In this document: positions 29,426 to 44,642 of the stretch, in pieces
How positions within the stretch are numbered: position 1 is the stretch's first letter
How the letters are laid out: every line of letters begins with the position of its first letter
Origin: a virus
Lineage: Duplodnaviria; Caudoviricetes
Length of the DNA: 55,601 nucleotides
Direction: 5' to 3' (one strand)
Virus record (IMG/VR): IMGVR_UViG_3300032291_000616
Span: 1-55,601 of that record
Made by a program: the position numbers and the translations under genes
The notes under the pieces: model-generated
What the model saw: only the letters and a program-made list of their open reading frames with translations
The model's database searches: none
Told to the model about the DNA's origin: nothing

Positions 29426-31120
29426 TCATTCTTCCGGTTGGGGTTCCCCTTTGAGGGCACGATACCCTTCGTAGGCCGCAAGGCCAGCCCCACCGACTGT
29501 TCCCAGCCCGCGCAGGGCCAGCAAAATCGGATGGGCAGGGGGTAGCATAGACATCACCCCGAAAGTCGCCTCCAGCGTGGACAGAACCGCCCCGCTGATG
29601 TCGCCCTTCTTGTATCGATCAATCGCCTCAGCGGCAGACATACCGGTCGCGGCACCGGAAATCACACCCAGAGCCTTCGGCGCGACCTTTGCGGTTGCGG
29701 CACCGACCTTTGCCAGTCCACCCGGCTGGGCATCCTTGGCACGCTGTGCGGCTTCTGCGGCGACGTTGGCGGCAGATTGGGCGCGATCCACAGCCCCTTG
29801 CTGGGTACGGGCGGCACGAGCGGCTTGATCAGCCTGCTGGCGGGCTTCTCCGGCCTGCTGGCGGGCACGACGGGCCGCTTCCACACGTTGCTGGGCGGCG
29901 ATGCGACGAGCCTCTTCTTGCTGGGCCAGTCTGGTTCGCTCGGCGGCTTCACGGGCCTGACGCTCGGCCAGTTCCCGCTCCATGGTCACAGAACGCTCAC
30001 CAGCCAGTTCTGGCGGGAGCATCAGTTGGCCTTTGCCTTGCCCGCTCAACTTGTAGTCACCGGCACCGAGTTGCTGGATTTTCTGCTTCGCGGCCACATC
30101 CCGGTCGATGATGGCTTGACCACCTCGGGGGTTATCCTTCCTCATGTTCTCGGCAGTCTCAGCGATGACGTCAGGCACATCCTGACCCATGGCCCTGACC
30201 CAGTTGGCCGCGCCAGACGATCCGGGAACCTTACGGCTTGCGCCAGCAACGTCCTCAACCACCTCAGTGGCGGCTGTTGCGGCAGAAGGCGCTGGCGTGG
30301 CCCGGGTGGTTGCACGCAGTTCTTCTTGAGCAAAGCGCAACTCTTCGGCGGCTTGATTGGCGGCGGTTTGACGCATCCGCAGTTCATTCTCGAGGTCACC
30401 AACAGACACGCCGGGGCCGCGAGACTGAACCTCACGCAGGCGGTCTTGAGCAACACGCAGGCGCTCTTGAGCGGCCTCAAGTTTTGGGGTTGTAGGTAGC
30501 GTGGTGTGCTGTGCAATCTTGCCCGCAACCAGACCAGCGCCAGCGCCAGCAAGCGCGGCGTCTTCCTTGTTGACGATGGCGGCTTGCTCAACAGGAGCAG
30601 GTGCAGGTTCGCTTGCAATCCGCTCACCCTCAGTCGGGCCGGTGCCGAACGGATTGTCTTCGGGCTTCATCGACTCAAGTCGAGCGTTGACCAAAGAGTA
30701 AGCGTTGCGAACTGCTGGGCCGTAGTCTTCTGCGCTGGCGTAGGAGCCGCGTACGCCTTGGCTCAAGCCGGTGGTGAATGCGTCAACATCAGAGCCGGTA
30801 CCAATCGCCTTGGGGTACAAACGCTTCATGAAGTCCACGTAGTACGCGGCAAAGGTTTCAGGGTCTTCAAACTTGATGTAGGCGTCGTTCGACTTTTCTT
30901 TTTTGTCGTACGCTTTCACGCCTGCGCCACTGAAGTCCTTGATGTTGCCGAGGTTGTAGGTGCCCGGGATCACACTCTTTCCCCAGCCGGTTTCAAGGCC
31001 AAACTTGGCAAGAATGATCTTTGGGTCGACGCCCAGTTCCTCACCGATTTTTTGTGAGATTGGGCCGTACTCTTGAATGAATGCTGTGGCGTCTCCGCCC
31101 TTTTTGTTCTCGGCCATCAC
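29426..31120 (-). CDS. Virion-associated peptidoglycan hydrolase (GH73/FlgJ-like) ejection protein
   Basis: N-terminal A...LETGWGKS.....NLGNIK...YAS..DY; coiled coil; hydrophobic C-terminal helices. Confidence 0.8.
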   Translation of the reverse strand: MMAENKKGGDATAFIQEYGPISQKIGEELGVDPKIILAKFGLETGWGKSVIPGTYNLGNIKDFSGAGVKAYDKKEKSNDAYIKFEDPETFAAYYVDFMKRLYPKAIGTGSDVDAFTTGLSQGVRGSYASAEDYGPAVRNAYSLVNARLESMKPEDNPFGTGPTEGERIASEPAPAPVEQAAIVNKEDAALAGAGAGLVAGKIAQHTTLPTTPKLEAAQERLRVAQDRLREVQSRGPGVSVGDLENELRMRQTAANQAAEELRFAQEELRATTRATPAPSAATAATEVVEDVAGASRKVPGSSGAANWVRAMGQDVPDVIAETAENMRKDNPRGGQAIIDRDVAAKQKIQQLGAGDYKLSGQGKGQLMLPPELAGERSVTMERELAERQAREAAERTRLAQQEEARRIAAQQRVEAARRARQQAGEARQQADQAARAARTQQGAVDRAQSAANVAAEAAQRAKDAQPGGLAKVGAATAKVAPKALGVISGAATGMSAAEAIDRYKKGDISGAVLSTLEATFGVMSMLPPAHPILLALRGLGTVGGAGLAAYEGYRALKGEPQPEE

Positions 31121-33060
31121 TCACCTGCTTTCTTTGTGCGAACGGTGCCATCGACATCGACGTACAAGCCGCCCACCGGCACATTCTTGAACGCCGCATC
31201 TTCCCTGCTCTTTATGCGAGGAGGGCCAGCGGATGGCGTGGCCGCAGGAGCGGATGACTTGGCTGGTGCCGCAGGAGCCGCAGGTGCTGTCGGCTTCTTC
31301 TCTTCCTTGCCTTTTGGTGAGGTGCGGAACAACTCAGCGTTGGACTTCTGCATTTGACCCAGACGTGCGTCGTAGGCATTGTTGATGCGATCAAGTTCAT
31401 CAGACGCCAAGAAGTCTCGGTACGAGTTCTCGGGGTTCTTGCTGAAGCGGTTCCATGCCTTGAACACCTCTTGGTCGTACTTACCCTTCATCTCGATGAA
31501 CTCAGACTTCAGGCGGATCACACGAGCAGTGTCGGTTGGCATCGCGCCCAATGCGGCATACAGGTCGCCTTCGCGCTCGGTCGTTGCGCCTTCACCCGGC
31601 ACACGAGCGGCCTTGCGGAACTGCACGGTGAGGTTCGCATACTCACGAGCAAACATTTGAAGAGCCTCGCGGTCTTCTTTAGACAACTTGTACGAAGCCA
31701 ACTCGCTTGATGGAATCGAGATCGATCCAAAGTTGCCAGCCTGAATGCCCTTCTGTGCAGAACGCATCACAGCGGCGGCAATACCGTCGTCGTTCATCAG
31801 GTCGAACGCACGCTTGTTGCTTGTGGCAAGTTCACGCATACCGCGTGCGGTGTTGACCAACTCACGCGACGCAGTGAAGTTCGTGTCCAGACGACCGATC
31901 TGCTCTTTCTCTTGTTGCACCTGCGCCTTGCCGCGCTCGGTAGTGATGTCCTGTCTCTGCTTGCGCTCCTCGACAGTGAGAGGCCTATCGCCACCGGTGG
32001 TGGGCTTCTCGCCGGGTTTGCCTTCTGTGGGTGCCTCGCCGGGTCTACCTTCAGCAGGAGTAGATGGCTTGCCCTCGAGCCAGCCGCGACGCTTGAACCA
32101 ATCAATTTCAAGGTTCGGGTTCTGTTCGGCAACAGCACGCTCGTGGGTCTTCTTCCACTCTTCGTAAATCGAGTACGGCACCTTCTTCGTGCCAATGTAA
32201 CGACCAAAGTCAACCTCGACGATCTTGTCGCCGGACTGTGGCAGGAATTGCTGACGACTGCGAGAGTACGGGCCTTCCGGTGTGGAGATGATGTCCTCGC
32301 GTTGCATCTTGGCAATCTCGGCCAACTCTTTGCCGTACTTGCCTGACGGATCGAGCAGGTACGCCTCCTCGATGTCCTTGTCGGTGATGAGCGCCTGCTG
32401 ACGGGGTGCGCCAGTCGACATGACTGGAGATGTGGGGGCGGCACCAGCAGGGCCAGCGACAGGGCCACGAGCAGGAGCGCCGCCAGCGGGAGCGCCTCCG
32501 GCAGGGGCACCACCAGCCGCAGGGCCACCCACAGGCCCGCCTACGGGGCCACCAGCGGGGCCAGAAGGCATACCGGGCATACCAGCACCCAGACGGGTTG
32601 CTCGGTGGCCCAAAATCGCGCCTTGCTGGGATAGGTCATACATCTTCTGCTGGAGTTCCATCTCCATCTTGTTTGCGGCTTGCTTACGCGCAAACTGCTT
32701 CTCCGCCTCGCTCGACATACCCTCAGCGGCATACCCAAGCGATTCGCCAAACGAGCCGGTTTTGGTTGGCTTTAGGAAGCCAGCCGCCGCCGCCATCATG
32801 GTTGGATCAAACGGCAAACCCATGCGGGTGTCGAGGCTCGACTTCAGACGCTGGGCGGTCGCATTGAGCGCCTCACGTTGTGCCTGCAACTCACGCAGTG
32901 ACTTTGACAAATAATCTTCTGGCGCAGGCGCTTGCTCCTGCTCCATGCCGGAGGCGCGTGCCGCCAGATTCTCTTGCTTGGGAGGCTGTGCCGGTGCGGC
33001 AGGTGCGGCAGGCCGAGCCTGATTGAGTCCGCCGACGGGTGCCTGTTGTGGTTGTGCCAT
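31117..33060 (-). CDS. Putative internal virion (ejection) protein
   Basis: 647 aa; AAGFLKPTKTGSFGESLG, Pro/Gly-rich repeats, helical C-terminal half; position in the ejection cluster. Confidence 0.65.
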   Translation of the reverse strand: MAQPQQAPVGGLNQARPAAPAAPAQPPKQENLAARASGMEQEQAPAPEDYLSKSLRELQAQREALNATAQRLKSSLDTRMGLPFDPTMMAAAAGFLKPTKTGSFGESLGYAAEGMSSEAEKQFARKQAANKMEMELQQKMYDLSQQGAILGHRATRLGAGMPGMPSGPAGGPVGGPVGGPAAGGAPAGGAPAGGAPARGPVAGPAGAAPTSPVMSTGAPRQQALITDKDIEEAYLLDPSGKYGKELAEIAKMQREDIISTPEGPYSRSRQQFLPQSGDKIVEVDFGRYIGTKKVPYSIYEEWKKTHERAVAEQNPNLEIDWFKRRGWLEGKPSTPAEGRPGEAPTEGKPGEKPTTGGDRPLTVEERKQRQDITTERGKAQVQQEKEQIGRLDTNFTASRELVNTARGMRELATSNKRAFDLMNDDGIAAAVMRSAQKGIQAGNFGSISIPSSELASYKLSKEDREALQMFAREYANLTVQFRKAARVPGEGATTEREGDLYAALGAMPTDTARVIRLKSEFIEMKGKYDQEVFKAWNRFSKNPENSYRDFLASDELDRINNAYDARLGQMQKSNAELFRTSPKGKEEKKPTAPAAPAAPAKSSAPAATPSAGPPRIKSREDAAFKNVPVGGLYVDVDGTVRTKKAGE

Positions 33061-33073
33061 CTTTTACTCCGCC

Positions 33074-34069
33074 TTATCGGACACGGCCACCAACACGGTA
33101 GCCTTGTCCTTTGTGTGTGACTGACATCGGTGTGCGACGAATGACACCGCCTTTGGCTTTGCCACGGGTTGCCGCCTCCGCTTGTGCGTTTTTGAGTGCG
33201 ATGTCCGCATTCAATTGATCGATCTGAGCCGCAGTCAATGCAGACTTGTCGTTGGTGTTCGCGGAGAACGAGCCAATAGCCGTGAGCAGGCCAGCAATCT
33301 GTGACAGCGGGCTGTTTGAGAACGCGCCCGGTGCCACTGTCTGCTTGACGTCGCCCGTTGGAATTTGGTAACCCTGCATGAGTTTGGAGAAGGCCTGCGC
33401 CTGCGCCATGGGGTAATCCAAAACCTTCTGACCCAAAGCCTGCTCTTGTGAGCCATAGTCGTACATCGACTTCAAGCCGCCAAGACCAAGTTGCTGTTGC
33501 TCTTGACCCAGCGTGGTGAACGAGCGGCCAGCCTCAAGAGCGCGTTGCAAATCGGTTTGCGCGGCTTTGGTGGCAGTGTCGTAGCCAGACTGAAGGAACT
33601 GGCCTTGTTTGCCCAGCAAATCAGCCTGCAAGTCACGCATCACGTTACCGGTGATCTGCTGTTGACGGCGTGAGCCAAACTGGCCCGTTCCAATCGCCGC
33701 GCCACCGAGGTTCGGAAGGACGTTCTCGCGAATGTTGCGCTGTTGCAGACGACCCATCTCATCCACCACAGAGCGGGTGTACGGGTTCATGTAGTCAGCA
33801 ACCACATCAGGCGCAGTTGTCGCACCAGCCTCGCCCATCAATTGCGATGCGGCACCCAAAGAGCCTGCGCCAGAGAAGGCCACGTCGGGAACCATCTGGA
33901 GGGCTTGTTGTTGCAACGGCGAAAAGCCAGCGATGCCACCTTGGGTGACAGCACTCTGGCCGAGGTTCGCAATGTCCTGAAGATAGTTGGTGTAAAACTC
34001 TGGCGCAACTTGTTGCGACTCAGTTGTTGTGGTTCCGTAAATCGGATCGCCTTGAAATAGTCCAGCCAT
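33074..34069 (-). CDS. Putative internal virion (DNA transfer) protein
   Basis: 331 aa Gln/Gly/Ala-rich; IAGFSPLQQQA, YMNPY...V, GQFGSRR. Confidence 0.7.
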   Translation of the reverse strand: MAGLFQGDPIYGTTTTESQQVAPEFYTNYLQDIANLGQSAVTQGGIAGFSPLQQQALQMVPDVAFSGAGSLGAASQLMGEAGATTAPDVVADYMNPYTRSVVDEMGRLQQRNIRENVLPNLGGAAIGTGQFGSRRQQQITGNVMRDLQADLLGKQGQFLQSGYDTATKAAQTDLQRALEAGRSFTTLGQEQQQLGLGGLKSMYDYGSQEQALGQKVLDYPMAQAQAFSKLMQGYQIPTGDVKQTVAPGAFSNSPLSQIAGLLTAIGSFSANTNDKSALTAAQIDQLNADIALKNAQAEAATRGKAKGGVIRRTPMSVTHKGQGYRVGGRVR

Positions 34070-34070
34070 T

Positions 34071-36902
34071 TCACTTTCCTTTCTTCAGGTATGAGGTCAA
34101 CGCCTTGGTCTTGGGCGGAATCTTATTCACGGGAGCCGAACGCTTGTGTGCGCGGATGTTTTCGCGGAACTTGTCAAGAGCCTGCGCTCCTGCTTTCGTT
34201 GACCCGTTGCCAATCTGTGCCACGGTTTCAGCATCGATGACGTACTCGCCATCGGCCAGCATCGCAGGGATGTCGTCGGACTGACCATCGCCGGGGCCAT
34301 GCACTGCGGAGCCTTTGCGGAAGTCCAAGCGACCTTCAGCCAGAGGCACATCAGAGATCGCTGGCAAGCCGCCGCGCTTCATTTGCTGGGGCATTTGCTG
34401 ACCAGCCTGCACGGGCATTTGAGGCTTAGGCATCTGGGGCATCATGCCACCAAGACCACCGGCCTGCTGGCCTTGCTGGGTAGGTTGTGGGTTCTTCAAG
34501 TTTTGCAGGGGATCAATCGGCTTGCCGAATGTGAAGTAGGTATCCACCGAGCCGCCGTCAGCCATTTGAGGCTGGGCCGCTTCAGCAGGAGCCTGCTCTT
34601 CTTCGTAGCCATAGTCACCCTCGCGCACTGGGTTGAAGCCCGGTGCATTCAAGTTGCGATACAACTCATCGCCATACAGTTCAGGCATTTGATCGCGTGC
34701 GCTGTACTCGTTGTAAGTTACGAAGCGAGGAGCGCCAATGCCGAAGTCGGTGGTGCGTGGGTTGATTACGCCAGCCTTGCTCATGTCAATCGATGGCGCA
34801 GGTTCATTGCTACCACCAAACAAGTTCTGATCACTCAAGAGTGTGCCCACCAAAGCGCCAGCGGCACCAGCACCAAGCGTTGGGTTCTCTTTGAACCAGT
34901 TTGCAAGACCAGACAAGGCACCTTGTTCTTTTTGCTGTTGGAGGCGCTGTTGCGCGGTCTGCGCTGGGGTGGTAGGTTTGCGGTATGTAGAGCCGCCACC
35001 ACCACCAGCGCCGGTAATCGAGGTGTCAGTTGCTTCGGTCGAACTGATCACATTGCCTTCAGAGTCAAAAGTGATTGTTGAACCGTCATCGTAGGTGTAA
35101 GTCTGACGACCAGACTCATCCGGGGCGTTGGTGTAACTCACCACGTCACCGTTTGCGTTGTAGGTCAGTGTTGAACCGTCGTCATAGGTGACCGTCTGAT
35201 TGCCACCTTCTTCGGACTGCCCAGTTTGGTACAGGTTGCCGTCGGAGTCGTAGGTCACATACGAGCCATCACTCATGTACTCGATGTACGAGCCATCGTC
35301 GAAGATTTCGGTGTCGACAATATCAGAGCCACCCTGATAAGAATTACCCAACAGGCTTGTGTCTGGTGCGCCGTAGCCGAAAGGACGAACACCAGACAAA
35401 TCGTTGTAGGTGTTGCCGACTGGGTTGCGATTGCCGGTCAGCGTGTAGCCAGTCATGGTTGGTTCGTCAAACTCACCGAAGTTGTAGTCGACGTTCTGCC
35501 AGTCTTGGACTTCTTCGCCGGTGTCGGAGTACCCGCCATCCACAAAGCGGCGAACACCGCCACCATTTGCCATCAGTGTCACAAGACCTCCCTTTTTCTC
35601 CTCGGGGTATTCCCAGTCATCGTAGACAGGCTCATCCTCGTAGGTGTATTCATCTTCGGCGTACCAGTCATCAGGAAGCGTGGTCTCACTGTCATCGTAC
35701 GCATAGTCGCCCTCAGCGTACGGGTCATAGACCACATTGCCATCCCAGTCGTACTGGTAGCCATATTCATCGGTGTAGACATAGTCGGAATGGTCTTCCT
35801 CGTCCACATATTCATCAGTGTAATCGCCGCCAGCAGAATAAACTAGATCGCCATTCGAGTCGTAGATGTTGCCATCCTCGTCTTCGTAATAACCAAGTTC
35901 AGTTTCGCCGGAATCTTCGTACCCTGTATCTGCCGCATCTGACGAAGAAAGGATGTTGCCATCCGAATCCAGCGTGATGGTGGAGCCGTCATCGTAGGTG
36001 TAGGTTACAGAGCCGTCATCATTGATCAGGCCACCAAAATCGTCGTAATCGGAGCCTTCTGTATTGCCCTCATCTACGACGCTCTCGTCAACCGCATCTG
36101 TTGAAGAGATGACATTTCCATCAGCATCCATGGTGACAGTTGACCCATCATCGTAGGTATAGGTCACAGAGCCGTCTTCATTGACCTTACCGCCAAATGC
36201 GTCGGTTCCTGTGTCGCTGTCTGAGCCTGTTGTTGATCCACCGGTACCGCCTGTACCACCAGTGCCACCAGTGCCACCAGTAGGAGTTTTAGGCGTCACA
36301 GGGGGCTTAGGCGTCACCGGAGGCTTTGGTGTTACGGGCGGCTTAGGCGCTACAGGAGGCTTGGGTGTGACTGGAGGTTTTGGCGTCACTGGAGCCTTGG
36401 GTTTGATTGCCCCGGTCACAGCATTGACGGCTTTATCCACCAGCGGATCAACCACCTTACCTTTGACTGCATTGATCGCTTTATCCACGGCGGCGGAGCC
36501 GGTGGTGCCCTTGCCGCCAGTTGCGGTATTTGCACCAAACAACTTGTCGTAAGCCATCTTGCCTGCCATGCCAACACCTGCGCCCAAGGCGGCGTTTTTG
36601 AGGGTGTTACCTAGACCAGACGTCGAAGCCGCGCTTGCGGTGCGCGTAATCGATGGACGAGTGGTTCCAGAGACCTTTGTGGTCAACGAGTTGGGTGTGC
36701 CAGCATTGATACCCGGCGTGGCCGTAGAAGAGCCTGTCGTGGTGGCCGTGGAGTTTGGCTTGAGAGCGCTCGTCAAAACGGCAGAAGGCCGGGATGCGGT
36801 CTTCTGCACAGCCTTCATCTTGTCACTTGGACGGCCTGCCGTCTGCTGGGGCGTTGCCCCGGGCAAGGTTGCAGATGAACTTCTCTTGTTCAGAATTGCC
36901 AT
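34071..36902 (-). CDS. Large repetitive acidic virion-associated protein
   Basis: 943 aa; PKPPVT and TGG repeats, TYDDGST.T.D.DGN repeats, C-terminal GPGDGQSDDIPAMLADGEYV domain. Confidence 0.7.
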   Translation of the reverse strand: MAILNKRSSSATLPGATPQQTAGRPSDKMKAVQKTASRPSAVLTSALKPNSTATTTGSSTATPGINAGTPNSLTTKVSGTTRPSITRTASAASTSGLGNTLKNAALGAGVGMAGKMAYDKLFGANTATGGKGTTGSAAVDKAINAVKGKVVDPLVDKAVNAVTGAIKPKAPVTPKPPVTPKPPVAPKPPVTPKPPVTPKPPVTPKTPTGGTGGTGGTGGTGGSTTGSDSDTGTDAFGGKVNEDGSVTYTYDDGSTVTMDADGNVISSTDAVDESVVDEGNTEGSDYDDFGGLINDDGSVTYTYDDGSTITLDSDGNILSSSDAADTGYEDSGETELGYYEDEDGNIYDSNGDLVYSAGGDYTDEYVDEEDHSDYVYTDEYGYQYDWDGNVVYDPYAEGDYAYDDSETTLPDDWYAEDEYTYEDEPVYDDWEYPEEKKGGLVTLMANGGGVRRFVDGGYSDTGEEVQDWQNVDYNFGEFDEPTMTGYTLTGNRNPVGNTYNDLSGVRPFGYGAPDTSLLGNSYQGGSDIVDTEIFDDGSYIEYMSDGSYVTYDSDGNLYQTGQSEEGGNQTVTYDDGSTLTYNANGDVVSYTNAPDESGRQTYTYDDGSTITFDSEGNVISSTEATDTSITGAGGGGGSTYRKPTTPAQTAQQRLQQQKEQGALSGLANWFKENPTLGAGAAGALVGTLLSDQNLFGGSNEPAPSIDMSKAGVINPRTTDFGIGAPRFVTYNEYSARDQMPELYGDELYRNLNAPGFNPVREGDYGYEEEQAPAEAAQPQMADGGSVDTYFTFGKPIDPLQNLKNPQPTQQGQQAGGLGGMMPQMPKPQMPVQAGQQMPQQMKRGGLPAISDVPLAEGRLDFRKGSAVHGPGDGQSDDIPAMLADGEYVIDAETVAQIGNGSTKAGAQALDKFRENIRAHKRSAPVNKIPPKTKALTSYLKKGK
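36240..36402 (-). repeat. Coding tandem repeats (PKPPVT about 6 copies; TGG about 5 copies)
   Basis: 18-nt and 9-nt periodicity with diversified synonymous codons. Confidence 0.85.
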
Positions 36903-36906
36903 GGTC

Positions 36907-38607
36907 TTATCCTTTGCTCTTCAACAGCGATGTCAGACCGGCGATATTTGTCACTGGGGTCAAAGTTGCGACATCTTTTTTCTTCGGAGGCATTGGTTTG
37001 CCTTGTTGCGCTGGGCGCGGTGTTGCAGACTGCGTTGGCCGTGCCGCCGCCAATTGAGTGGGCGACATACGAGCCGGTGGCTTTGTGGCAACGCGGGTCT
37101 GCGCTGGCCTCTTGGCAACCTGACGTGTCGGCGTGCCGCGCAGTGTTTTGGTGATACCTTGACGAATTGCAGGCTTGAGAATCTGGTTCAATGCACCAGA
37201 GATCACGGACTGACCACCGCCTGTTGGCATGAAGCCAGCGGCCAAGCCACCAAGGGTTGGAGCCTTCATGCCGATACCGGGCTTCTCGCCAGCAACGTCA
37301 ACCACAGTATCTTCAGTTTGAGGCTTGAGCATAGACTCGCTGGCCTGCTCAAGCACATCAGGCTCAACAGGTGCAGTCATGGCAGTCAAGCCGCCTCTTG
37401 GCTGAATCTGCTCTTGCACTGTGGGCGTCTCTTGGTATGTCTGCATCTCTTCAAGAGCAGGCACTTTTGCGCCAAGTTCTGCGGCGTAATCTTCCTCTTT
37501 GGGAGACGAAATTTCTTGCGCGTAGACAGGTTCAGCCGAGTCTTGATCGGCGGTAATTGGAGTTGGCAACTCCTCGCCGTATTCAGTTGCAATATCAGAG
37601 ACGTCCTCTGAAGGCGCAATCATTTCTGCTTCGGTCTCAAGGTACTCAGTTGGCGACTCATAGCCAGCCATTTGAGTATCGAGAGAATCAGCAGACATCG
37701 CCTCTTCAATCATCGGGTCTTCATTGACGTTTGGCGACTCGTAGCCAAGGTCAGAGACCTCAACCATGTCGACGATCTCATCGGGAATACCTGCGCCGGT
37801 GCCCCTTACGCCAGAAGTCTCAGCCCAAGAGTCATCGAGTTCTGTCAAGAGGGTTGCACGAGCCTCCTCGTTGCCTTCCTCAGATTGAACGATCTCAAAT
37901 TCAGTTGTTGCGGTTGCATTGAATTGTTCGCTGATCGAACTGACGGCGTAGTTTGCGCCAAGGTTCGCAGTACCGTTGATCATGCTGTTGGTGAACGCAG
38001 TGTCAAAGTCACCGCGACCGGTCAACTCAGCGGTGACACCAGAGGTCAAAGCCTTCTCAGCAATGGTGCCGAACTGACCCATGTCAGGCAGGTCGGTCAA
38101 AACTTCTTCGCTGACAAAATCGCTGATCTCGCCAACGCCAGCACCAACCACGGTGCCCGTGAAGCCACCAGCAAAGCCATCCTCAAAGTCGCCGCCCCGA
38201 ACCTCAGAGACGACGCCGTTGACGAGACCCTTGCTGATGCCGTCAACCACCACGTTGGACACAGCCTCGTTGATGATTGCGTCACCAATCGATGCGGACA
38301 GGGTTGAACTGATTGCGTTGGTGGCCGCAGGCGCAAAGTACGCAGTGCCAGCGGACAGCACGATGTCTTCAAGATCACCACCACGAGCGGCAGTGATGGC
38401 GGCGTTGGTCACCATGGGTGGGATACCCACAAACGAACCAGCGACAGAAAGCAAAACAGGAAGCGGATCGTCGATCACCGCCTGCACTACATCGCCAACA
38501 AATTCGACAGCCTCGCCGACAAAATCACCAACGGCTTCTACAACATCACCGACGGCGTCAACAACGCTCTCGACCGCGTCGACAACAAATTCAACAACTG
38601 CACTCAT
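36907..38607 (-). CDS. Putative ejection protein with amphipathic N-terminal repeat and Gly-rich hydrophobic helices
   Basis: 566 aa; VVEFVVDAVESVVDAVGDVVEAVGDFVGEAV; repeated (R)GGD(L/F)ED; acidic middle, basic tail. Confidence 0.65.
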   Translation of the reverse strand: MSAVVEFVVDAVESVVDAVGDVVEAVGDFVGEAVEFVGDVVQAVIDDPLPVLLSVAGSFVGIPPMVTNAAITAARGGDLEDIVLSAGTAYFAPAATNAISSTLSASIGDAIINEAVSNVVVDGISKGLVNGVVSEVRGGDFEDGFAGGFTGTVVGAGVGEISDFVSEEVLTDLPDMGQFGTIAEKALTSGVTAELTGRGDFDTAFTNSMINGTANLGANYAVSSISEQFNATATTEFEIVQSEEGNEEARATLLTELDDSWAETSGVRGTGAGIPDEIVDMVEVSDLGYESPNVNEDPMIEEAMSADSLDTQMAGYESPTEYLETEAEMIAPSEDVSDIATEYGEELPTPITADQDSAEPVYAQEISSPKEEDYAAELGAKVPALEEMQTYQETPTVQEQIQPRGGLTAMTAPVEPDVLEQASESMLKPQTEDTVVDVAGEKPGIGMKAPTLGGLAAGFMPTGGGQSVISGALNQILKPAIRQGITKTLRGTPTRQVAKRPAQTRVATKPPARMSPTQLAAARPTQSATPRPAQQGKPMPPKKKDVATLTPVTNIAGLTSLLKSKG

Positions 38608-39050
38608 TTTTTGGCCTCACGTTTTGGGCCGAGTTTCAAGGTGACACGGTAGCCATCCTTGAGTTTCTCAGCCTTGTATCCCATGCCCTCTTGCGGCGGG
38701 TTGCGCGAGATGGCCTTGAAGATGTTGATGATGGTCGGGTCTTGGAACGTCGTCACCATGGTGTCGAAGCCCATCTTGTATGCGGCTTGCACCCACTCGT
38801 ACGAGTTCTCGAGGTAGTTCCTCGCGGTGTCCGCATTCAGCGCCCGAAAGAATCCGATGCGCTCACGAACGTGGTGCATCACGAAAATGGTATTTCCGGC
38901 GCGGTAGGTACTCGTGCCGGGTTGGTTCATCTCTTCGACAAGAGCGGCAAAAATACTGGCCGCAGGATGAGGAGACTTGGTCTCCTGTGCCGCGATCATC
39001 AAGACCGCCTCATCTTTCAGTTCTTTTTTCTTGCTATCGACCAGCATCAC
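38604..39050 (-). CDS. Hypothetical alpha/beta protein, possibly a divergent GNAT-fold acyltransferase
   Basis: 148 aa coupled to the ketosynthase stop; helix-helix-strands-helix-(GF)-strand pattern; fold assignment is inference. Confidence 0.45.
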   Translation of the reverse strand: MMLVDSKKKELKDEAVLMIAAQETKSPHPAASIFAALVEEMNQPGTSTYRAGNTIFVMHHVRERIGFFRALNADTARNYLENSYEWVQAAYKMGFDTMVTTFQDPTIINIFKAISRNPPQEGMGYKAEKLKDGYRVTLKLGPKREAKK

Positions 39051-40162
39051 AGCCCCTCAAAAATTGCGGCGGAGTAAATGTTTCCCATCCCTGCCGCCAG
39101 ACTCAGGATGTGGCCCTTGGGGGGCGTGACAGATTCCGAAAGGAATACCGAATCGGATTCAGTTCGGTTCTCGATTCCCGGGACGAATCCCTTCTTGATG
39201 TCGTCCAGCAATAGTAGCGTCTCGAGGAGGCCGCTGGAACCCATTGTGTGGCCGATTTTCTGCTTGTAGGAGGTCACGACGACGTCTTTCAAGCCAGACC
39301 CAAGGATGGCGGCTTTCTCCGCCTTGTTGTTCGATACTGTGCCCGTGCCGTGGGCCTTGACGATGCCGATGTCGTGGCGCAAGGTCTTGCTGTGGAAGCA
39401 GGCACCGCCGATAGCCCGGGAAAAGCCCTCGCCGTCCTCGCACTGGCCGATGGCGTTGGTGCTGTTCTCGGAGGCGTTGTAGGCACCCACCAAGCGGGCG
39501 TGTGGGGTGCGCTGAAAGCGCTTGACCAGTCGCTCGTTCTCAAAGACCGCCAGCGCGGCCCCCTGACCCACGTAGAAGCCGCGATTCTTGCTGTCGAAGG
39601 CCGAAGGCTTGACACCGTTCTCGGCTTCGTCCTTGGCCGTCAAAACGGCTTGCGACTCGCCAAAGAACTCCAGCACGGCGTTGGACACACCGTCTTCGAC
39701 CGTCAGGACGATCACGCGGTCAAAGTCGTAGTGCTTCATCAGCACCTCGACATCCATCATCACCTTCAGACTGCTGGCGCAGGCAGAGGCGTCGGTGGTG
39801 ACCATGCCCATCTCGCCGAAGGACTGAGCCGTGCGACCGGCGTAAACCTGTGTCAGCGTGAACGGCAGGAACTTGTAGGTGTACGACAGGCGCGAGTTGT
39901 AGGAGCGTTGTCCGATGCCTGCAAAGTGGGCGTTGCCACCCGCAAGGATGAAGGCAGTCTTGCCGCAGGACTCTTCGCGAAGTTGCTTTGCCAACTCAGG
40001 GTCAAGAACCTTCTCGGCCAACTTGTGAGGGACGTAAAACATCCCGGTCTGGGTGCGCTTGTAGGTCTCAGGGAACCAGTGAACACGCTGTGGGAAAACG
40101 ATGTCGTCGAACAATTCAACATGATTGGTCGAGGCTGTGCGGTAGTGCGTCAGGTAGATCAT
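39047..40162 (-). CDS. Beta-ketoacyl-ACP synthase (FabB/FabF-like, divergent)
   Basis: SACASS (Cys128), AFD..NRGF.VG.GA, AHGTGT..N (His271), SYK..IGHTMG.SG (Lys300, His305). Confidence 0.92.
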   Translation of the reverse strand: MIYLTHYRTASTNHVELFDDIVFPQRVHWFPETYKRTQTGMFYVPHKLAEKVLDPELAKQLREESCGKTAFILAGGNAHFAGIGQRSYNSRLSYTYKFLPFTLTQVYAGRTAQSFGEMGMVTTDASACASSLKVMMDVEVLMKHYDFDRVIVLTVEDGVSNAVLEFFGESQAVLTAKDEAENGVKPSAFDSKNRGFYVGQGAALAVFENERLVKRFQRTPHARLVGAYNASENSTNAIGQCEDGEGFSRAIGGACFHSKTLRHDIGIVKAHGTGTVSNNKAEKAAILGSGLKDVVVTSYKQKIGHTMGSSGLLETLLLLDDIKKGFVPGIENRTESDSVFLSESVTPPKGHILSLAAGMGNIYSAAIFEGL

Positions 40163-40443
40163 GCGATCTCCTTTTGTGCCTCTTCGACCGATGCAGGCTC
40201 CTTGGTTTTGCGCCGCATCAAAAAGTCGTAGACCTCCTGAACGGAGGTCGGGTGGAAATCCTTGGTCTCATCGTCGTCAGGTATGCCGTACAACTCTGTG
40301 AGGTACATGAGCATGATGAGTCCATCAAGACTATCGATGCCGATGTCTTGCAAGGTGTCTTCCATTGAAGTTGCCGCTATCTCGTTTGCGTGGGCTGGTC
40401 GCGCCACTTTCGAGACCATGTTGAATAGTTCTATGAAGTCCAT
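40159..40443 (-). CDS. Acyl carrier protein
   Basis: 94 aa acidic; L.DIGIDSLD (Ser38 phosphopantetheine site), E.YGI, T(S)V.EV.DF. Confidence 0.88.
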   Translation of the reverse strand: MDFIELFNMVSKVARPAHANEIAATSMEDTLQDIGIDSLDGLIMLMYLTELYGIPDDDETKDFHPTSVQEVYDFLMRRKTKEPASVEEAQKEIA

Positions 40444-40445
40444 TT

Positions 40446-40694
40446 TTATTCTGATGGGTTATTGACAGCGTTGACCAATGCCACGGCCCACTCCTGCCAG
40501 TTTGTAAATGGATCAGGCCCGGGGACTCCGTCGCGATCAAACGACGAGATGCCTTTCAGTCCACGCGCCCACGCTTTCCAGTCTTGTTCACCTCCCGGTA
40601 TTGAAAGTTGTTGCGCCGCATATGCCTCGCACATAAGACACGCCCACGAGTCCCATGTGTGATAACGAGGGTCATATACGACAGGAATCGTCAT
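40446..40694 (-). CDS. Trp-rich small tail-region protein
   Basis: YDPR..TW..WA, W..WA.GL, P.P..F..WQEWA; ATGA overlap with the tail gene. Confidence 0.75.
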   Translation of the reverse strand: MTIPVVYDPRYHTWDSWACLMCEAYAAQQLSIPGGEQDWKAWARGLKGISSFDRDGVPGPDPFTNWQEWAVALVNAVNNPSE

Positions 40695-42763
40695 GACGAA
40701 TAACCTCTGACGTCGCCCGCATCTGCATTGACCAGCACGCGACCCATTTCGTAGTTGCCACCAGAGACGTTGCTGGTGAATCTCAAACGAAGTTCTCGGC
40801 GCTGTTCACGCATATCAATTTTGCCTGTTCCCGGCTCAAAATAGTAGGGGTCAGAAATCTTGTCCTGCTCCTGAGCGTATGGGCGTCCAATAATCTGCAT
40901 TGACATTGTCCCGGACTGAACGAAGTCAGGTTCAATGCGCTCGATGTGGAGCCAGAAATTCTCGCCCACAGGCGCAGTCTGAGATGGGCCACCACCGACC
41001 CAGCCAAGGTCAGACGTCTCGAACATCGATTCGATGGCGTTCGACAACTCATAGATGACGGCGTCGGTGCCCACCTCGTGTTGCCAAATCACGATCTTTC
41101 CGGGCACGGTGTAGAAGGTGGCAGTCACTGTGGCGCTGGCCGTGGCCGCATTCGACAGGGTCACTGTGAAATAGTTGGGCGTCGCGCTGGGCACAATATC
41201 CGTCACCAAAGTGTCTGTCGGGATGCCAGCCGCAACCACCAGTTGGCCGTTCTGGATCAAGTTCGTCAGTGGAACCTCGATGTCGAAACTGCCATTGGTT
41301 GTCGTGATCGACGAAGAGAAGATGGTCTCTTGCGTGCTGAGTTCAGAACCAGCATTGATCGGGAAGCGGAACACCTGCGAGAAATACCCGGCAGTGCGGT
41401 TGCATCCATCAGCAAAACCGCCGTCGTACCAGCAGTTCTCGCGCACGTTGTAGATGATGCAGTTGTTGCACTCTTCCGAATCACCCTCGGGGTAGAACCA
41501 CCAAATCTCGCCGAATCGAGGAACCTTGGTTGCCCAGACCTTCTGACGCTGAACGTAGTTCAGGTTGTCAAAGAAGTAGTTCTGGTTGAAGGCGTTTGGA
41601 ATCTCTTTGACCACACCGTTGTAGAGCAGGAAGCGATCCACGCCGATCCAGTAGTAGATGCCGTCGTACTCGATCACAGACTGGCTCGACAAGATCGAGG
41701 ACTGGCTCGAGATGATGTCGTAGCGCCAGTAGAAGGTCTGGGGCGTGCCGCCCACCGTGATGGTGGTTGGGGCATAGGAGACTCGGATCAGCGAGTCCAA
41801 AGCCCAGAACAGGCCGGAAGGAGAGTTCGTGCCACCACGAACTGGAAGCCCCTTGACGATCTTGGTGGACGACACGTTGGTTTCGTTGGCGTCAGCGCCG
41901 TTCCAATCGAACGGATCGCCAGCCACGTTGTTCTTGATCAGCCCGTTGTCACCGTACACGAAGATGTATGGGTGAAGCACCACCACGCCGCCAGACACCT
42001 CAATGGTGTCGCCGGTAGGGGTTGAGCCGCCTGTGTCCTTCAAAGGTGCCAGCACGAGGCCGTTAAGCGGCCCGCCAAGCACAGCGGTGTTTACAGTGCT
42101 GTCGATCTGGGAAAGGTTGTGACCGGGGTGGGCCACAAGGAAGTTTGCGCCAGCGCCTTGCGAATCGAAAAGCGAATCGAATTGCCAGAGGTGGTCGGTG
42201 CTTGGTGTGAACAAGTCATCCGACGTTGCCACCGGCACAGACCAGCCAGAGCCAGTTCCGCCGATCGATGTATTGGCGCAGGTAAGCGAATCACCGGGCA
42301 CATAGTAGTTGCCAGCGTCCGTGATGGTCACGGTGGACACTACCCCGCCAGAAACGACGATGGTGGCCTTTGCGCCTGCGCCGTAGCCTCCAGTGAGGGC
42401 CACGTTGGTGTAGGTGCCGTTGGTGTAGCCAGTACCCGGCACGATGGTGCCCAAGGTCAGGATTTCACCACCAAACACCATTTCGTTGGTGCCTGAGCCG
42501 ATGCCGTTGTTGTCGATGTCGATGACCTCAATTCCGTCATCGTAGCCGTTGAAAATCTTGTTGATGCCGTCTTCTGAGTTGACGTAGATGCCACGAGACA
42601 GGCCATCAGCATTCGTGACGATGGCGCGGTATCCGCCGATCTTGCGGGGGCGTCCGCGCTGGAACCGCACCCACTTGCCGTCGGTGTAGAAGTTCTTGTC
42701 GAAGTACGTCCCGTCCCGTTGAATGCCGGGTTGGGTGTCAATCGAAAAAACCTTCTGCGTCAT
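40691..42763 (-). CDS. Tail tube/nozzle protein (P22 gp10 / T7 gp12-like)
   Basis: 690 aa beta-rich; PGI.RDGT, WVRFQRGRP.KIGG, FGEIWWFYP, YN..EN.W. Confidence 0.75.
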   Translation of the reverse strand: MTQKVFSIDTQPGIQRDGTYFDKNFYTDGKWVRFQRGRPRKIGGYRAIVTNADGLSRGIYVNSEDGINKIFNGYDDGIEVIDIDNNGIGSGTNEMVFGGEILTLGTIVPGTGYTNGTYTNVALTGGYGAGAKATIVVSGGVVSTVTITDAGNYYVPGDSLTCANTSIGGTGSGWSVPVATSDDLFTPSTDHLWQFDSLFDSQGAGANFLVAHPGHNLSQIDSTVNTAVLGGPLNGLVLAPLKDTGGSTPTGDTIEVSGGVVVLHPYIFVYGDNGLIKNNVAGDPFDWNGADANETNVSSTKIVKGLPVRGGTNSPSGLFWALDSLIRVSYAPTTITVGGTPQTFYWRYDIISSQSSILSSQSVIEYDGIYYWIGVDRFLLYNGVVKEIPNAFNQNYFFDNLNYVQRQKVWATKVPRFGEIWWFYPEGDSEECNNCIIYNVRENCWYDGGFADGCNRTAGYFSQVFRFPINAGSELSTQETIFSSSITTTNGSFDIEVPLTNLIQNGQLVVAAGIPTDTLVTDIVPSATPNYFTVTLSNAATASATVTATFYTVPGKIVIWQHEVGTDAVIYELSNAIESMFETSDLGWVGGGPSQTAPVGENFWLHIERIEPDFVQSGTMSMQIIGRPYAQEQDKISDPYYFEPGTGKIDMREQRRELRLRFTSNVSGGNYEMGRVLVNADAGDVRGYSS

Positions 42764-44004
42764 CAGAATGCACCCCCAGCAACGCCACCTGTGAAGGTGC
42801 CGGTGCCACTGATCGTCAAGCCGGTGGCCGACAACGTGAAGAGGTTGGTACCCAAGATGCCGATGTTGAATTGGCCCGAGGCGGCGCGGTACACACCGGT
42901 GGTCGGCTCAGAACCAAAGTACAAGGCAGGGCTGGATACGGTGCCGTCAATCAAACCAAGGGCAGACGCACCAGCCAGCACGGTGTTGGCGTTCACAAGG
43001 TTGACCGAGTCGCAAATCAGTGTGGCCTGCTGGTTCGAGGCAATCGTCGCCTCGGAGCCGCCGGTGTTGGTTGTGAGTTTGATCGTGTAGTTCGACACAC
43101 CGCCGACGGTGGCGTTCTGGACGTAGTACACCTGCACCGTCTGCGGGACGATGATCGTGGCGTTGCTCGAGAGCGTGCCGGTGAACTTCAGGATCACGTT
43201 CGACGCCTCGGCGGCTGTCAGGGTGATGGTTCCGCCGGTGACGGCTTTTGTCAGTTGCGTGAAAGCGAACTGGGTCGACTTGCCCAAGCCCACGGTATAG
43301 AAGGCCGCGCCAGAGCAGACGATGATGCAGGAGTCGCTTGGCTGAAGAATCAGCGATGCGGAGCCGTTGATCACGTCACCGCCAGAGCAGGCCACGGTCA
43401 ATGCGCCGGTACCGCTGTTGCGGAGGAACATGAACCAGTTATTGCCCAGCGTGGTCACGCCAGACAGGGTCAGCGTGCCAGCGCCGCCAGTCCACACATA
43501 GGTGTTCGAGCGGTCAGTTGTCAGCGCGGTGTAATTTGACGAGAAGGTGGTGACCGGCTGGGACTGGTTCAGCGTCTGGCCGATCGCCAGCAAGCCATAG
43601 CCCGCCAGAGTGGCCGCATCGGCCCCAGAAGAGCCGATCCCGAAGGCGATGATGCCCCATGTGCCAGTGACGGTCGGATTGGCCGTGATGTAGATGTAGC
43701 GGGCCTCGCCAGCGGGGATCGAGATGATCGTGTTCGCGCCGCCAAAATCCTTGACCGTGAAGGTCGTAGCGCCCACGTTGCGGATCATTGCATCCTGACC
43801 GACCGATGCTTGGTTGGCAGGAGGCATATAAAGCGAAAGGCCCGCAGAGGAGGCTGTGACCTCCATGATGCGGGCGGCGTAGTCGTCGGTGGCGTTTCCG
43901 TTGATCGGCCACTCCAACTGCGTGTTCGCTGATAGGGTGATGGCTCGGTAGGAAACGTCGGTTGGTTGGATGACGTTGCCGGTGAAGGGGCTGTTGTAAC
44001 TCAT
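42763..44004 (-). CDS. Tail structural/fibre-like protein
   Basis: 413 aa Thr/Gly/Ser-rich; repeated LP.......G.....RN.G modules; DGT...PAL.F.SE..TG.YR. Confidence 0.7.
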   Translation of the reverse strand: MSYNSPFTGNVIQPTDVSYRAITLSANTQLEWPINGNATDDYAARIMEVTASSAGLSLYMPPANQASVGQDAMIRNVGATTFTVKDFGGANTIISIPAGEARYIYITANPTVTGTWGIIAFGIGSSGADAATLAGYGLLAIGQTLNQSQPVTTFSSNYTALTTDRSNTYVWTGGAGTLTLSGVTTLGNNWFMFLRNSGTGALTVACSGGDVINGSASLILQPSDSCIIVCSGAAFYTVGLGKSTQFAFTQLTKAVTGGTITLTAAEASNVILKFTGTLSSNATIIVPQTVQVYYVQNATVGGVSNYTIKLTTNTGGSEATIASNQQATLICDSVNLVNANTVLAGASALGLIDGTVSSPALYFGSEPTTGVYRAASGQFNIGILGTNLFTLSATGLTISGTGTFTGGVAGGAF

Positions 44005-44006
44005 GG

Positions 44007-44642
44007 TCAGGTATCCAATACTGCGGCTTGACGGTCACCAATGCGCTGAACATCTTCTTGCTTCAGCGTCTGCATGATTGCGTCGTAGTTGGCTTGCCAC
44101 ATCTGCATTCTGCTGTCGTTCTTCAGGAACGGCATGGCCTGCAAGAGAGAGCCATACAGCATTGCTTGTGGTGCGTAAGTGGTGAACCAGTTGGTCTGGT
44201 TGGAAGAATCAAGCGGCTGGACTCGCTCGTAGTACAGCACCTCGAAGACGTAGTCGTCATCAGGGGTGGGGGCCACGAGCCAGTGGGTGTAATCGTAGTC
44301 TGCGTAGTAGGCCGGAACATCAGTCTCGGTTGGGTTCGGCCAATACTCGCGCAGGTACTCGTACTTGCGGAGCAGAACGGGCTGTTTGACGCCACCCACA
44401 GTGACGTTCATGGAGACAGTCTTGTGCCAGCGTGCTGGCTTGTCGATGATCGGCTGGTTGGACGTCATCGTGGACGTCATGGGCGTCAGGTTGCCAAGGA
44501 ACTTGATCTGGCTGGCGATGATCTGCTCGGCCAGCATGATGAAGGTCGGGATTTTCTCGAGCGTCGCGGTGTCGGTGCGCTCAAGGTACGAAGAGACGTC
44601 TGCAACCAGAGAGTCATACGTCATTACTGCGGCAGTTGTCAC
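44007..44642 (-). CDS. Head-tail adaptor / tail tubular protein A-like
   Basis: MTY.SL...V..YLER.D, IPTFI.LAE, VAPTPD..Y..E..YY, NW....AP...LYGSL..A..FLK. Confidence 0.8.
   Translation of the reverse strand: MTTAAVMTYDSLVADVSSYLERTDTATLEKIPTFIMLAEQIIASQIKFLGNLTPMTSTMTSNQPIIDKPARWHKTVSMNVTVGGVKQPVLLRKYEYLREYWPNPTETDVPAYYADYDYTHWLVAPTPDDDYVFEVLYYERVQPLDSSNQTNWFTTYAPQAMLYGSLLQAMPFLKNDSRMQMWQANYDAIMQTLKQEDVQRIGDRQAAVLDT

Follow-up and report, generated by a model that had tools for sequence, protein, structure and literature searches.

The 55.6-kb virus record IMGVR_UViG_3300032291_000616 (rated 100% complete; the whole stretch is called the window below) encodes, within its late operon, an acyl carrier protein (ACP), a ketosynthase (KS), a small protein (p148) whose predicted fold is that of a GNAT acyltransferase, and a larger protein (p566) whose gene follows directly. 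All four genes lie on the minus strand where a first-pass annotation of the sequence had placed them, and the chain of 4-nt stop/start overlaps that it described is real: ATGA joins ACP to KS, GTGA joins KS to p148 (with an ATG one codon downstream), and ATGA joins p148 to p566. The first three genes are read here as an acyl-transfer system, a conclusion that we hold more confidently than the identity of the acceptor. In the reading that we prefer, and to which we give about an even chance, a private acyl-ACP is built and its chain is moved by the GNAT protein to the p566-type virion protein.

The KS matches both Pfam ketoacyl-synthase domains above cutoff (PF00109, 7.5e-10; PF02801, 9.4e-13), as well as phrog_35856 (1.5e-37). 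Cys128, His271, and His305, which had been named as an intact catalytic triad, fall together with Lys300 on the active site of solved FabF structures, and all four residues are invariant in 66/66 distinct family sequences. Across 28 distant members of the family, neither the Cys, the first His, nor the Lys varies, and conservation of the second His is at least 90%. By its sequence, the enzyme is not a FabF. Its best NCBIfam match, fabF, scores 107.6 bits against a cutoff of 493.75, the protein lacks ~40 aa relative to FabF, and its N-terminal ~95 residues are family-specific: most alignments with solved FabF structures begin near residue 97 (a few at 27–69), and most FabF-like representatives align to the KS only from about residue 95–115. 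Among the 50 KS cluster representatives found at E ≤ 1e-30, the 42 that are longer than 250 aa span 256–473 aa, and for most of these the alignment starts within the first residues of the phage KS. In quick IQ-TREE searches (SH-aLRT support only, with composition warnings), a long branch with a support of 100 splits the family from FabF-like outgroups. The first-pass annotation had raised the possibility of a phage-only KS clade; the family does stand apart from FabF, but two cellular Burkholderiales loci fall inside it. A protein search of a phage collection returned 19 matches, of which only MW202545.1 exceeded 60% identity; the other 18 (24–29% identity, on unannotated contigs) look like host FabF. 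A megablast of the cassette region against the same collection gave no match.

The ACP scores below the cutoff of the Pfam PP-binding family (E 0.057; 14.1 bits vs. 20.8), matches phrog_5934 “acyl carrier protein” at 1.8e-3, and reaches 5.9e-4 with NCBIfam acyl_carrier, far under that cutoff. A 26-member profile of the phage ACPs (A4) retrieved 14 matches from the PDB, all of them ACPs (best E 6.6e-5). Ser38, the proposed attachment site, aligns with the phosphopantetheine serine (DSL) of PDB ACPs, and D37-S38-L39-D40 is invariant in 70/70 ACP sequences. The phage ACP would be expected to carry phosphopantetheine and acyl chains. The conservation of catalytic residues in KS and ACP suggests strong purifying selection on them. 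No phosphopantetheinyl transferase (PPTase), FabD, AMP ligase, FabA/FabZ, or FabG/FabI-type enzyme was found in the complete genome (PF01648, PF00698, PF00501, PF07977, and PF13561; E ≤ 1), in line with the absence of PPTase and FabG/FabZ/FabI claimed earlier; the absence claimed for thioesterases covers no separate search for thioesterase families.

The 148-aa ORF had been left without a function by the first-pass annotation, and is now read from its model as a GNAT-fold acyltransferase candidate (residues are numbered on a 147-aa form starting MLVDS). The AlphaFold model (pLDDT 91.9, pTM 0.85) has the helix and strand order of a GNAT, with alpha1–alpha2, beta2–4, alpha3, beta5, alpha4, and beta6–7 all in place, and we are confident of this predicted fold. 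Foldseek returned 47 PDB matches at E ≤ 1e-3. In a wide VIA search, Z-scores ran from 10.4 to 8.6 among the 50 matches listed, and a second VIA search reached 11.4 with RimI (2cnm), an N-alpha-protein acetyltransferase. Since the scores of the GNAT classes are tied, what can be read from the fold is the reaction, transfer of an acyl group to an amine, and not the substrate. Alignment A1 of p148 and its relatives has the invariant residues G51-N52-T53, F55, H58, and L70-N71-A72-D73. His58 and Asp73 are therefore both fixed, and may correspond to the His/Asp dyad that toxin-activating acyltransferases (TAATs) use. The homologs of p148 form 1496 clusters, of which the 120 listed have no Pfam domain and the named ones are labeled hypothetical protein; the p148 profile against PDB sequences gave a best E of 0.73.

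The KS family is widespread. In IMG/VR, 151 contigs have a close relative of the KS and at least 547 viral contigs have a relative from the wider family. Among the 81 loci collected first, both ACP and KS occur in 81/81 and p148 in 75/81 (in the other six, the contig ends at the KS), which bears out the earlier view of the module as conserved, phage-borne, and linked to the late operon in this lineage. In a set of 155 loci, which includes some contigs fetched twice, 109 carry the GNAT gene, and a p566-type N-terminus is directly next in 106 of these, the other three being cut. When the search was seeded with the GNAT instead, the KS adjoined it in 79/80 loci. The phage genome G003 separates the parts: its p148 homolog lies ~20 kb from ACP-KS, in a late operon with the order p211-p413-p690-p82-GNAT-(1151-aa MSAV protein)-p331-p647, which is the window's operon minus ACP-KS. 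This layout indicates that the GNAT and the p566-type gene are a fixed couple, and that ACP-KS is a movable part found elsewhere in the same genome. The order p82-GNAT-p566 N-terminus also occurs at L226; no KS was found on this contig, which at 34% completeness is uninformative on that point. In G001 (the contig of locus L096) no GNAT was found, and the late operon runs past the contig end.

The p566 protein begins M-S-A-V and continues as an acidic, Val-rich amphipathic repeat (D+E 15 vs. K+R 1 in the first 100 aa), with one hydrophobic segment at 49–67, a variable acidic middle, and a basic C-terminus. Proteins of this type vary greatly in sequence and length, up to ~1800 aa; their start does not vary in this way, as almost every one of 79 distinct N-termini reads M-S/G/A/T-A-V. 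At position 2, Ser occurs in 52, Gly in 21, Ala in 4, Thr in 1, and Pro in 1. Methionine aminopeptidase removes Met1 before a small second residue, and by these established rules Met1 should be removed in 79/79. The first 45 residues contain no lysine in 34/79 and a single lysine in 29/79. In G003, a p566-type N-terminus is fused to a C-terminus like that of p943, the protein encoded after p566 in the window, which suggests that p566 and p943 are modules of one ejection-type protein. In some relatives, including the four loci of Table 1, the p566-type N-terminus heads a much larger protein of 1151 to ~1800 aa. A complex prediction of p148 (A1) with residues 1–80 of p566 (A3) scored 0.02 against a mark of 0.32, was run without controls, and is evidence neither way. 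The small protein p82 is found in 75/81 loci and adjoins the GNAT even when ACP-KS is elsewhere. Its model (pLDDT 83.5) consists of three helices, and it has no structural match (best Z 3.9) and no match in Pfam, PHROG, or NCBIfam.

Cellular relatives of the KS family give a further line of evidence. Approximately 185,000 species genomes were scanned with a tighter KS alignment (A6), which yielded 25 KS relatives, including nine full-length family members, all nine in metagenome-assembled genomes (MAGs). Each of the nine carries an ACP and three also carry a GNAT; the contigs of these three (2.8, 7.7, and 37.6 kb) look like binned phage DNA. On the other hand, two loci are clearly cellular: L245 adjoins NiFe hydrogenase and histidine kinase genes on an 890-kb Burkholderiales contig, and L246 is in another Burkholderiales MAG. 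In both, the KS is followed by an acyltransferase of the HlyC family (PF02794; 8e-18 in L245, 5e-21 in L246), and another HlyC-like gene precedes the ACP. In L245, the KS and acyltransferase genes overlap by 4 nt, where the ATG of the latter meets the stop of the former. A TolC-like gene (1e-20; 8e-23) and a gene for an RTX-repeat protein (2e-44; 6e-31) are neighbors. The two KSs form their own clade (support 100), sister (87) to the main phage clade (98) and inside the family. The first-pass annotation had drawn an analogy with the acylation of RTX toxins by HlyC, and this is strengthened, as the cellular loci have a HlyC-type acyltransferase in the position that belongs to p148 in the phage cassette. 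Literature searches turned up no HlyC-type operon with its own ACP-KS.

Membership of p148 itself in PF02794 was considered and dropped: p148 has no match to that family at E ≤ 0.1, and hhalign of A1 with the HlyC-type protein of L245 gave a probability of 0.4%. As it is not detectably related to PF02794, p148 is taken as a functional counterpart and not as a member. ApxIC is not among the 50 matches listed in either VIA search, which excludes nothing. The N-termini of the RTX-repeat proteins of L245 and L246 (MSAAVAWVEENIVKPI... and MSGAATWINDNVVQPI...) resemble p566 by eye, a likeness that was dropped after hhalign gave 0.35%; a hidden Markov model of the p566 N-terminus found nothing at 1e-3 in L245 or L246. 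Four cassette-bearing, phage-like contigs (L242, L240, L241, and L243) were binned in Polaromonas, Nitrosomonadaceae, unclassified Pseudomonadota, and Balneolaceae MAGs. This binning and the cellular Burkholderiales relatives hint weakly at hosts that include freshwater betaproteobacteria.

The sequences and models show which genes are present, that their catalytic residues are intact, that p148 has a GNAT fold, that the linkage is conserved, and that cellular sister loci encode HlyC-type enzymes. From this we infer a donor, an acceptor, a biological role, and the following chemical steps. A host PPTase would convert the phage ACP to its holo form, and a host malonyl transferase would load it with malonyl. 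The phage KS would load Cys128 with an acyl primer drawn from the pool of the host and condense this primer with malonyl-ACP, leaving a beta-ketoacyl chain on the phage ACP that host reductive enzymes may process further. The chain would then be moved by p148 from the phage ACP to an amine. The acceptor would most likely be the p566-type virion protein encoded immediately downstream, with the favored site being the alpha-amine freed by the removal of Met1 from M-S/G-A-V. The lipid on this protein may help entry or anchoring in the host envelope during DNA delivery.

Several points weigh against this reading. No acylation of anything has been observed, and the system is known here from genes and models. 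Different GNAT classes score within ~1 Z of each other as structural neighbors of p148, and the RimI-like top match does not point to N-terminal acylation in particular. p148 has no match in PHROG, NCBIfam, or Pfam, including the acetyltransferase families of the latter at E ≤ 0.1, and shows no sequence similarity to a characterized acyltransferase. GNATs canonically bind the pyrophosphate of acyl-CoA with a Q/R-x-x-G-x-G/A motif after beta4; at the beta4–alpha3 junction of p148, as judged by eye, the sequence is an invariant L-N-A-D-T-A-R-N and the CoA motif is not evident. p148 could be non-catalytic or use another donor. p566 also has no family match (Pfam, PHROG, NCBIfam), and it is its position that suggests a virion or ejection protein. 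Since the MSAV start overlaps the stop codon of the GNAT gene, its conservation may partly reflect a constraint of translational coupling. The cellular evidence consists of two MAG loci, and the arrangement was found in 1/301 sampled genomes of that order.

The distribution of ACP-KS adds to these points. The tail–ACP–KS–ORF–ejection synteny that the first-pass annotation proposed to look for is kept in this lineage, but it is not universal, as at 38 loci the sequence leaves space for a GNAT and none adjoins ACP-KS. In the 15 of these that were inspected, ACP-KS lies among small early-type genes (neighbors such as a nuclease and a protein like single-stranded DNA-binding proteins were identified by eye). 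Contexts with and without the GNAT interleave on the KS tree, with at least five switches, and G004, a 100%-complete phage genome, has ACP-KS and no detectable p148 homolog. In other lineages, what follows the KS is a gene for a dehydratase of the FabA/FabZ type (5.8e-30) or for a 269-aa protein that weakly matches (~1e-4) rubrerythrin or di-iron, acyl-ACP-desaturase-like proteins; in L087, a cupin gene (4e-7) is next but one. These variable neighbors suggest that ACP-KS is the core of a variable acyl-tailoring set, and the presence of ACP-KS in early regions, without p148 in G004, and beside FabZ or desaturase-like genes argues that the pair does not depend on the GNAT.

The first alternative is that the product is a small molecule or a modified lipid. 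A beta-ketoacyl- or otherwise tailored acyl-ACP would be used by the GNAT to acylate an amino acid, a polyamine, a sugar amine, or an S-adenosylmethionine-derived homoserine lactone, giving a signal, a surfactant, or an envelope-modifying lipid late in infection. We consider this unlikely, and it has points in its favor. The fold matches of p148 include the acyl-homoserine lactone synthases TofI (Z 9.1) and LasI (Z 8.8), as well as the acyltransferase domain of NcdE (Z 9.1), all of which are GNAT-fold enzymes that take acyl-ACP as donor for a small acceptor; the matched LuxI-type synthases (184 and 197 aa) are, however, much larger than p148 with its 148 aa. The FabZ, weakly desaturase-like, and cupin neighbors described above are typical of small-molecule and lipid pathways. 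Rhizobia possess a comparable trio in NodF (a dedicated ACP), NodE (a dedicated KS), and NodA (an N-acyltransferase that acts on a sugar amine), although NodA is not a GNAT. Lysis genes share the late operon, so a late position is no proof of a virion role. A small acceptor would nevertheless leave unexplained why the GNAT is followed so regularly by a p566-type gene, and why the couple remains in the structural operon of a phage whose ACP-KS has another location. In the cellular sister loci, moreover, the partners of the KS family are protein acyltransferases and RTX-repeat proteins.

In the second alternative, the genes are unrelated neighbors. ACP-KS would be an auxiliary metabolic pair that supports or diverts fatty-acid synthesis of the host during infection, and p148 would be a morphogenesis GNAT of the internal virion protein A (IVP-A) type, like T7 gp13 or P22 gp14, either acetyl-CoA-dependent or non-catalytic and with no link to the ACP. 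The loci where ACP-KS occurs apart from the GNAT in early regions, and the complete genome G004, are in line with the first part of this proposal. For the second part, podoviral IVP-A genes (T7 gp13, PF11090; P22 gp14, PF11039/DUF2824) are described, like p148, as small GNAT-type genes between tail-tube and internal-protein genes, and a cobavirus GNAT is reported next to internal virion protein genes and compared with T7 gp13 (PMC6775973). Entries named “Internal virion protein A” rank 19th and 24th when viral fold matches to p148 are taken from BFVD, with TM 0.45–0.50, which is no better than generic GNATs. The nearest Pfam-bearing clusters in the ESM Atlas are of PF11039 (DUF2824), with weak scores of 0.92 and 0.90 (141 and 118 shared features). 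On the other hand, neither PF11090 nor PF11039 matches anything in the whole genome at E ≤ 10. The proposal also fits poorly with the adjacency of KS and GNAT in the GNAT-seeded loci and with their overlapping stop and start codons, and G003, which separates ACP-KS from the GNAT, still encodes both. A KS without a reductase or dehydratase, paired with a highly diverged ACP, would be a poor booster of bulk fatty-acid synthesis, and in the cellular sister loci the slot of p148 is occupied by an acyl-ACP-dependent protein acyltransferase. We regard this alternative as improbable. The third alternative, in which the chain goes to another late protein (p82, p690, p943, or other), to an internal lysine, or to a host envelope protein, is highly improbable: HlyC-type enzymes do acylate internal lysines (PMC8339906; PMC8510554), p82 too stays beside the GNAT, and a lysine in S-K-G-L-V-N-G (~residue 132 of p566) is kept among close relatives (A3), but this lysine is lost in distant p566-type proteins, and p82 is detected in fewer distant loci than the p566 N-terminus (27 vs. 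33 of 73).

The preferred reading, transfer of a private acyl chain to a p566-type protein, has partial precedents in bacteria. HlyC-type enzymes use an acyl-ACP donor, a protein acceptor, and a His/Asp dyad, and they are described as having a GNAT-like fold despite “unidentifiable sequence homology” and without CoA-binding elements (PMC8339906; PMC8510554). p148 resembles them in its coupled slot after the same KS family and in its GNAT fold, and its invariant His and Asp may correspond to their dyad. In the RTX systems (HlyC/CyaC/ApxIC; CdiC), as would be the case in the phage, a protein acylated from acyl-ACP must engage a target membrane; CdiC, for instance, is reported to lipidate a delivered protein, which then anchors in the outer membrane of the target cell (PMC8510554). 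In contrast to the phage with its dedicated ACP and KS, the classical RTX systems use housekeeping acyl-ACP of the host; they also modify an internal lysine, whereas the phage site would likely be an N-terminal amine, and the phage genes are set in a virion operon. GNATs are also known to acylate the N-termini of ribosomal peptides, and GdvG takes ACP-bound acyl units only (10.1101/2023.10.25.564083; PMC8784127). In such maturases (GdvG of goadvionins, lipolanthines, selidamides, and LpvE of lipoavitides), a GNAT is described as joining a dedicated chain, made by a fatty acid or polyketide synthase, to the N-terminus or a lysine of a peptide. These systems are, however, found in bacterial secondary-metabolite clusters and act on short, leader-guided peptides, while the candidate substrate in the phage is a 566-aa structural protein. 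With AcpP and FabF of type II fatty acid synthesis, the phage pair shares a discrete ACP and a KAS-II-type enzyme with a Cys-His-His triad; it differs in the shorter KS with its own N-terminal ~95 residues and in that no phage reductase or dehydratase was found. Acyl-ACP-dependent transfer by a GNAT-like enzyme is known as such; what would be new is its occurrence in the virion operon of a phage that also encodes a dedicated ACP and KS. Literature searches, with supplementary annotation tables (e.g., of PMC6775973) outside their scope, found no phage KS-ACP virion module, no lipidated phage ejection proteins, and no case of a phage enzyme that acylates virion proteins.

The cassette is long-resident. 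The tetranucleotide AGCT does not occur in the 55.6 kb, against ~153 copies expected from a Markov model and ~209 from base composition, and the cassette likewise lacks the ~10 that would be expected in it, which is the basis for regarding it as an old part of the genome. GC content at third codon positions (GC3) and codon usage of the KS are within the range of other late genes. The cassette thus shares the restriction-site avoidance of the genome, as had been proposed. Of the 64 six-base palindromes, 33 are absent genome-wide, 16 of which have at least five expected copies (GGCGCC 30.6, CGGCCG 25.6). In 14 loci that were checked, AGCT is absent from five (L002, L003, L005, L010, L049), partly depleted in three (L001, L022, L034), and not depleted in six. 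This pattern points to strong lineage-specific selection by restriction systems.

The late genes lie on the minus strand, and run from the terminase through a 1330-aa protein to the portal and head genes; across the ends of the record, the order continues with adaptor and fiber genes, an endolysin, p211, p413, p690, and the cassette. The cassette is thus placed between tail or virion structural genes (p211, p690) and the large proteins that end with p564. p690 belongs to phrog_3287 (8.9e-24) and p211 to phrog_2941 (2.1e-33), and homologs of the upstream structural genes in MW202545.1 are labeled “phage stabilization protein” and “tail protein.” At its N-terminus, p564 carries a domain of peptidoglycan hydrolases (PF01832, 1.8e-11; phrog_3513, 2.5e-13), as would be expected of a virion-borne protein that opens the cell wall. 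By their gene position, p943, p331, p647, and p564 are presumed to be internal or ejection proteins, and the order of the large downstream proteins is preserved in relatives. The C-terminus of p943 resembles a short motif of tape-measure PHROGs (about 1e-6). Its C-terminal ~80 residues are also its best-conserved piece (85–87% over ~10% of p943 by tblastn at several loci), and the rest contains PVTPKPP repeats, G-T-G-G repeats, and a very acidic middle with at least four copies of a repeat of the type Y-T-Y-D-D-G-S-T-x-T-x-D-x-D-G-N-V-x-S-S-T. Two tail-fiber paralogues match phrog_4492 (4e-39 and 1e-46); their GC is 0.50 and their GC3 0.49–0.50, both clearly low, and their codon usage deviates further than that of any other of the longer late genes. 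This suggests that they are recently exchanged host-range modules. The 1330-aa ORF has a weak match to DUF7178 and one to phrog_3170 (8e-13), which is of unknown function. Coordinates are collected in Table 1.

Table 1. Genes of the cassette, neighboring late genes, and related loci, with positions in the window or, after a locus handle, in that locus.
Feature	Coordinates	Strand	Description
p82	40446..40694	-	Small Trp-rich three-helix protein, directly upstream of ACP
ACP, 94 aa	40159..40443	-	Diverged acyl carrier protein, Ser38 in G-I-D-S-L-D
KS, 371 aa	39047..40162	-	Short KAS-II-like ketosynthase
p148	38604..39050	-	Compact GNAT-fold acyltransferase candidate
p566	36907..38607	-	Candidate acyl acceptor
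p943, p331, p647, p564	29426..36902	-	Presumed internal/ejection proteins; role from position
p690, p413, p211	40691..44642	-	Upstream tail or virion structural genes
p943	34071-36902		Repeat-bearing protein
Tail-fiber paralogues	46373-47485; 48432-49508		phrog_4492
1330-aa ORF	8222-12214		Between terminase and portal
Long p566-type proteins	L136:2865-8261; L137:3696-8306; L147:5426-9940; L157:6591-10046		p566-type N-terminus
Post-KS tailoring genes	L090:9130-9558; L084:9086-9892; L086:5561-6364; L087:9540-9905		FabA/FabZ, desaturase-like, or cupin context
Cellular operons	L245:7277-14361; L246:1229-7548		HlyC-like gene, ACP, short KS, HlyC-family acyltransferase; TolC-like and RTX-repeat genes close

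A broader proposal can be made, which is tentative and on balance doubtful: tailed phages may lipidate their own ejection proteins on the N-terminus with a beta-ketoacyl or fatty chain, for entry into the envelope, by means of a private ACP, KS, and GNAT; podoviral IVP-A genes of the T7 gp13 and P22 gp14 types may likewise be acyltransferases that act on core proteins; and the ACP-KS family may, in some bacteria, provide HlyC-type enzymes with special acyl chains for RTX-repeat proteins. If the preferred reading is true, it would add a new post-translational step to phage assembly or entry, in at least 547 viral contigs, and would provide a compact, self-contained toolkit of ACP, KS, and transferase for site-specific protein lipidation. 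It would also reveal an unnoticed variant of bacterial RTX-type acylation that has its own ACP and ketosynthase. Even with a small-molecule acceptor, a widespread, virus-specific KS family with its own carrier would represent a new class of phage metabolic gene. If ejection proteins are indeed lipidated, the myristoylated penetration proteins known from animal viruses would have an equivalent in bacterial viruses.

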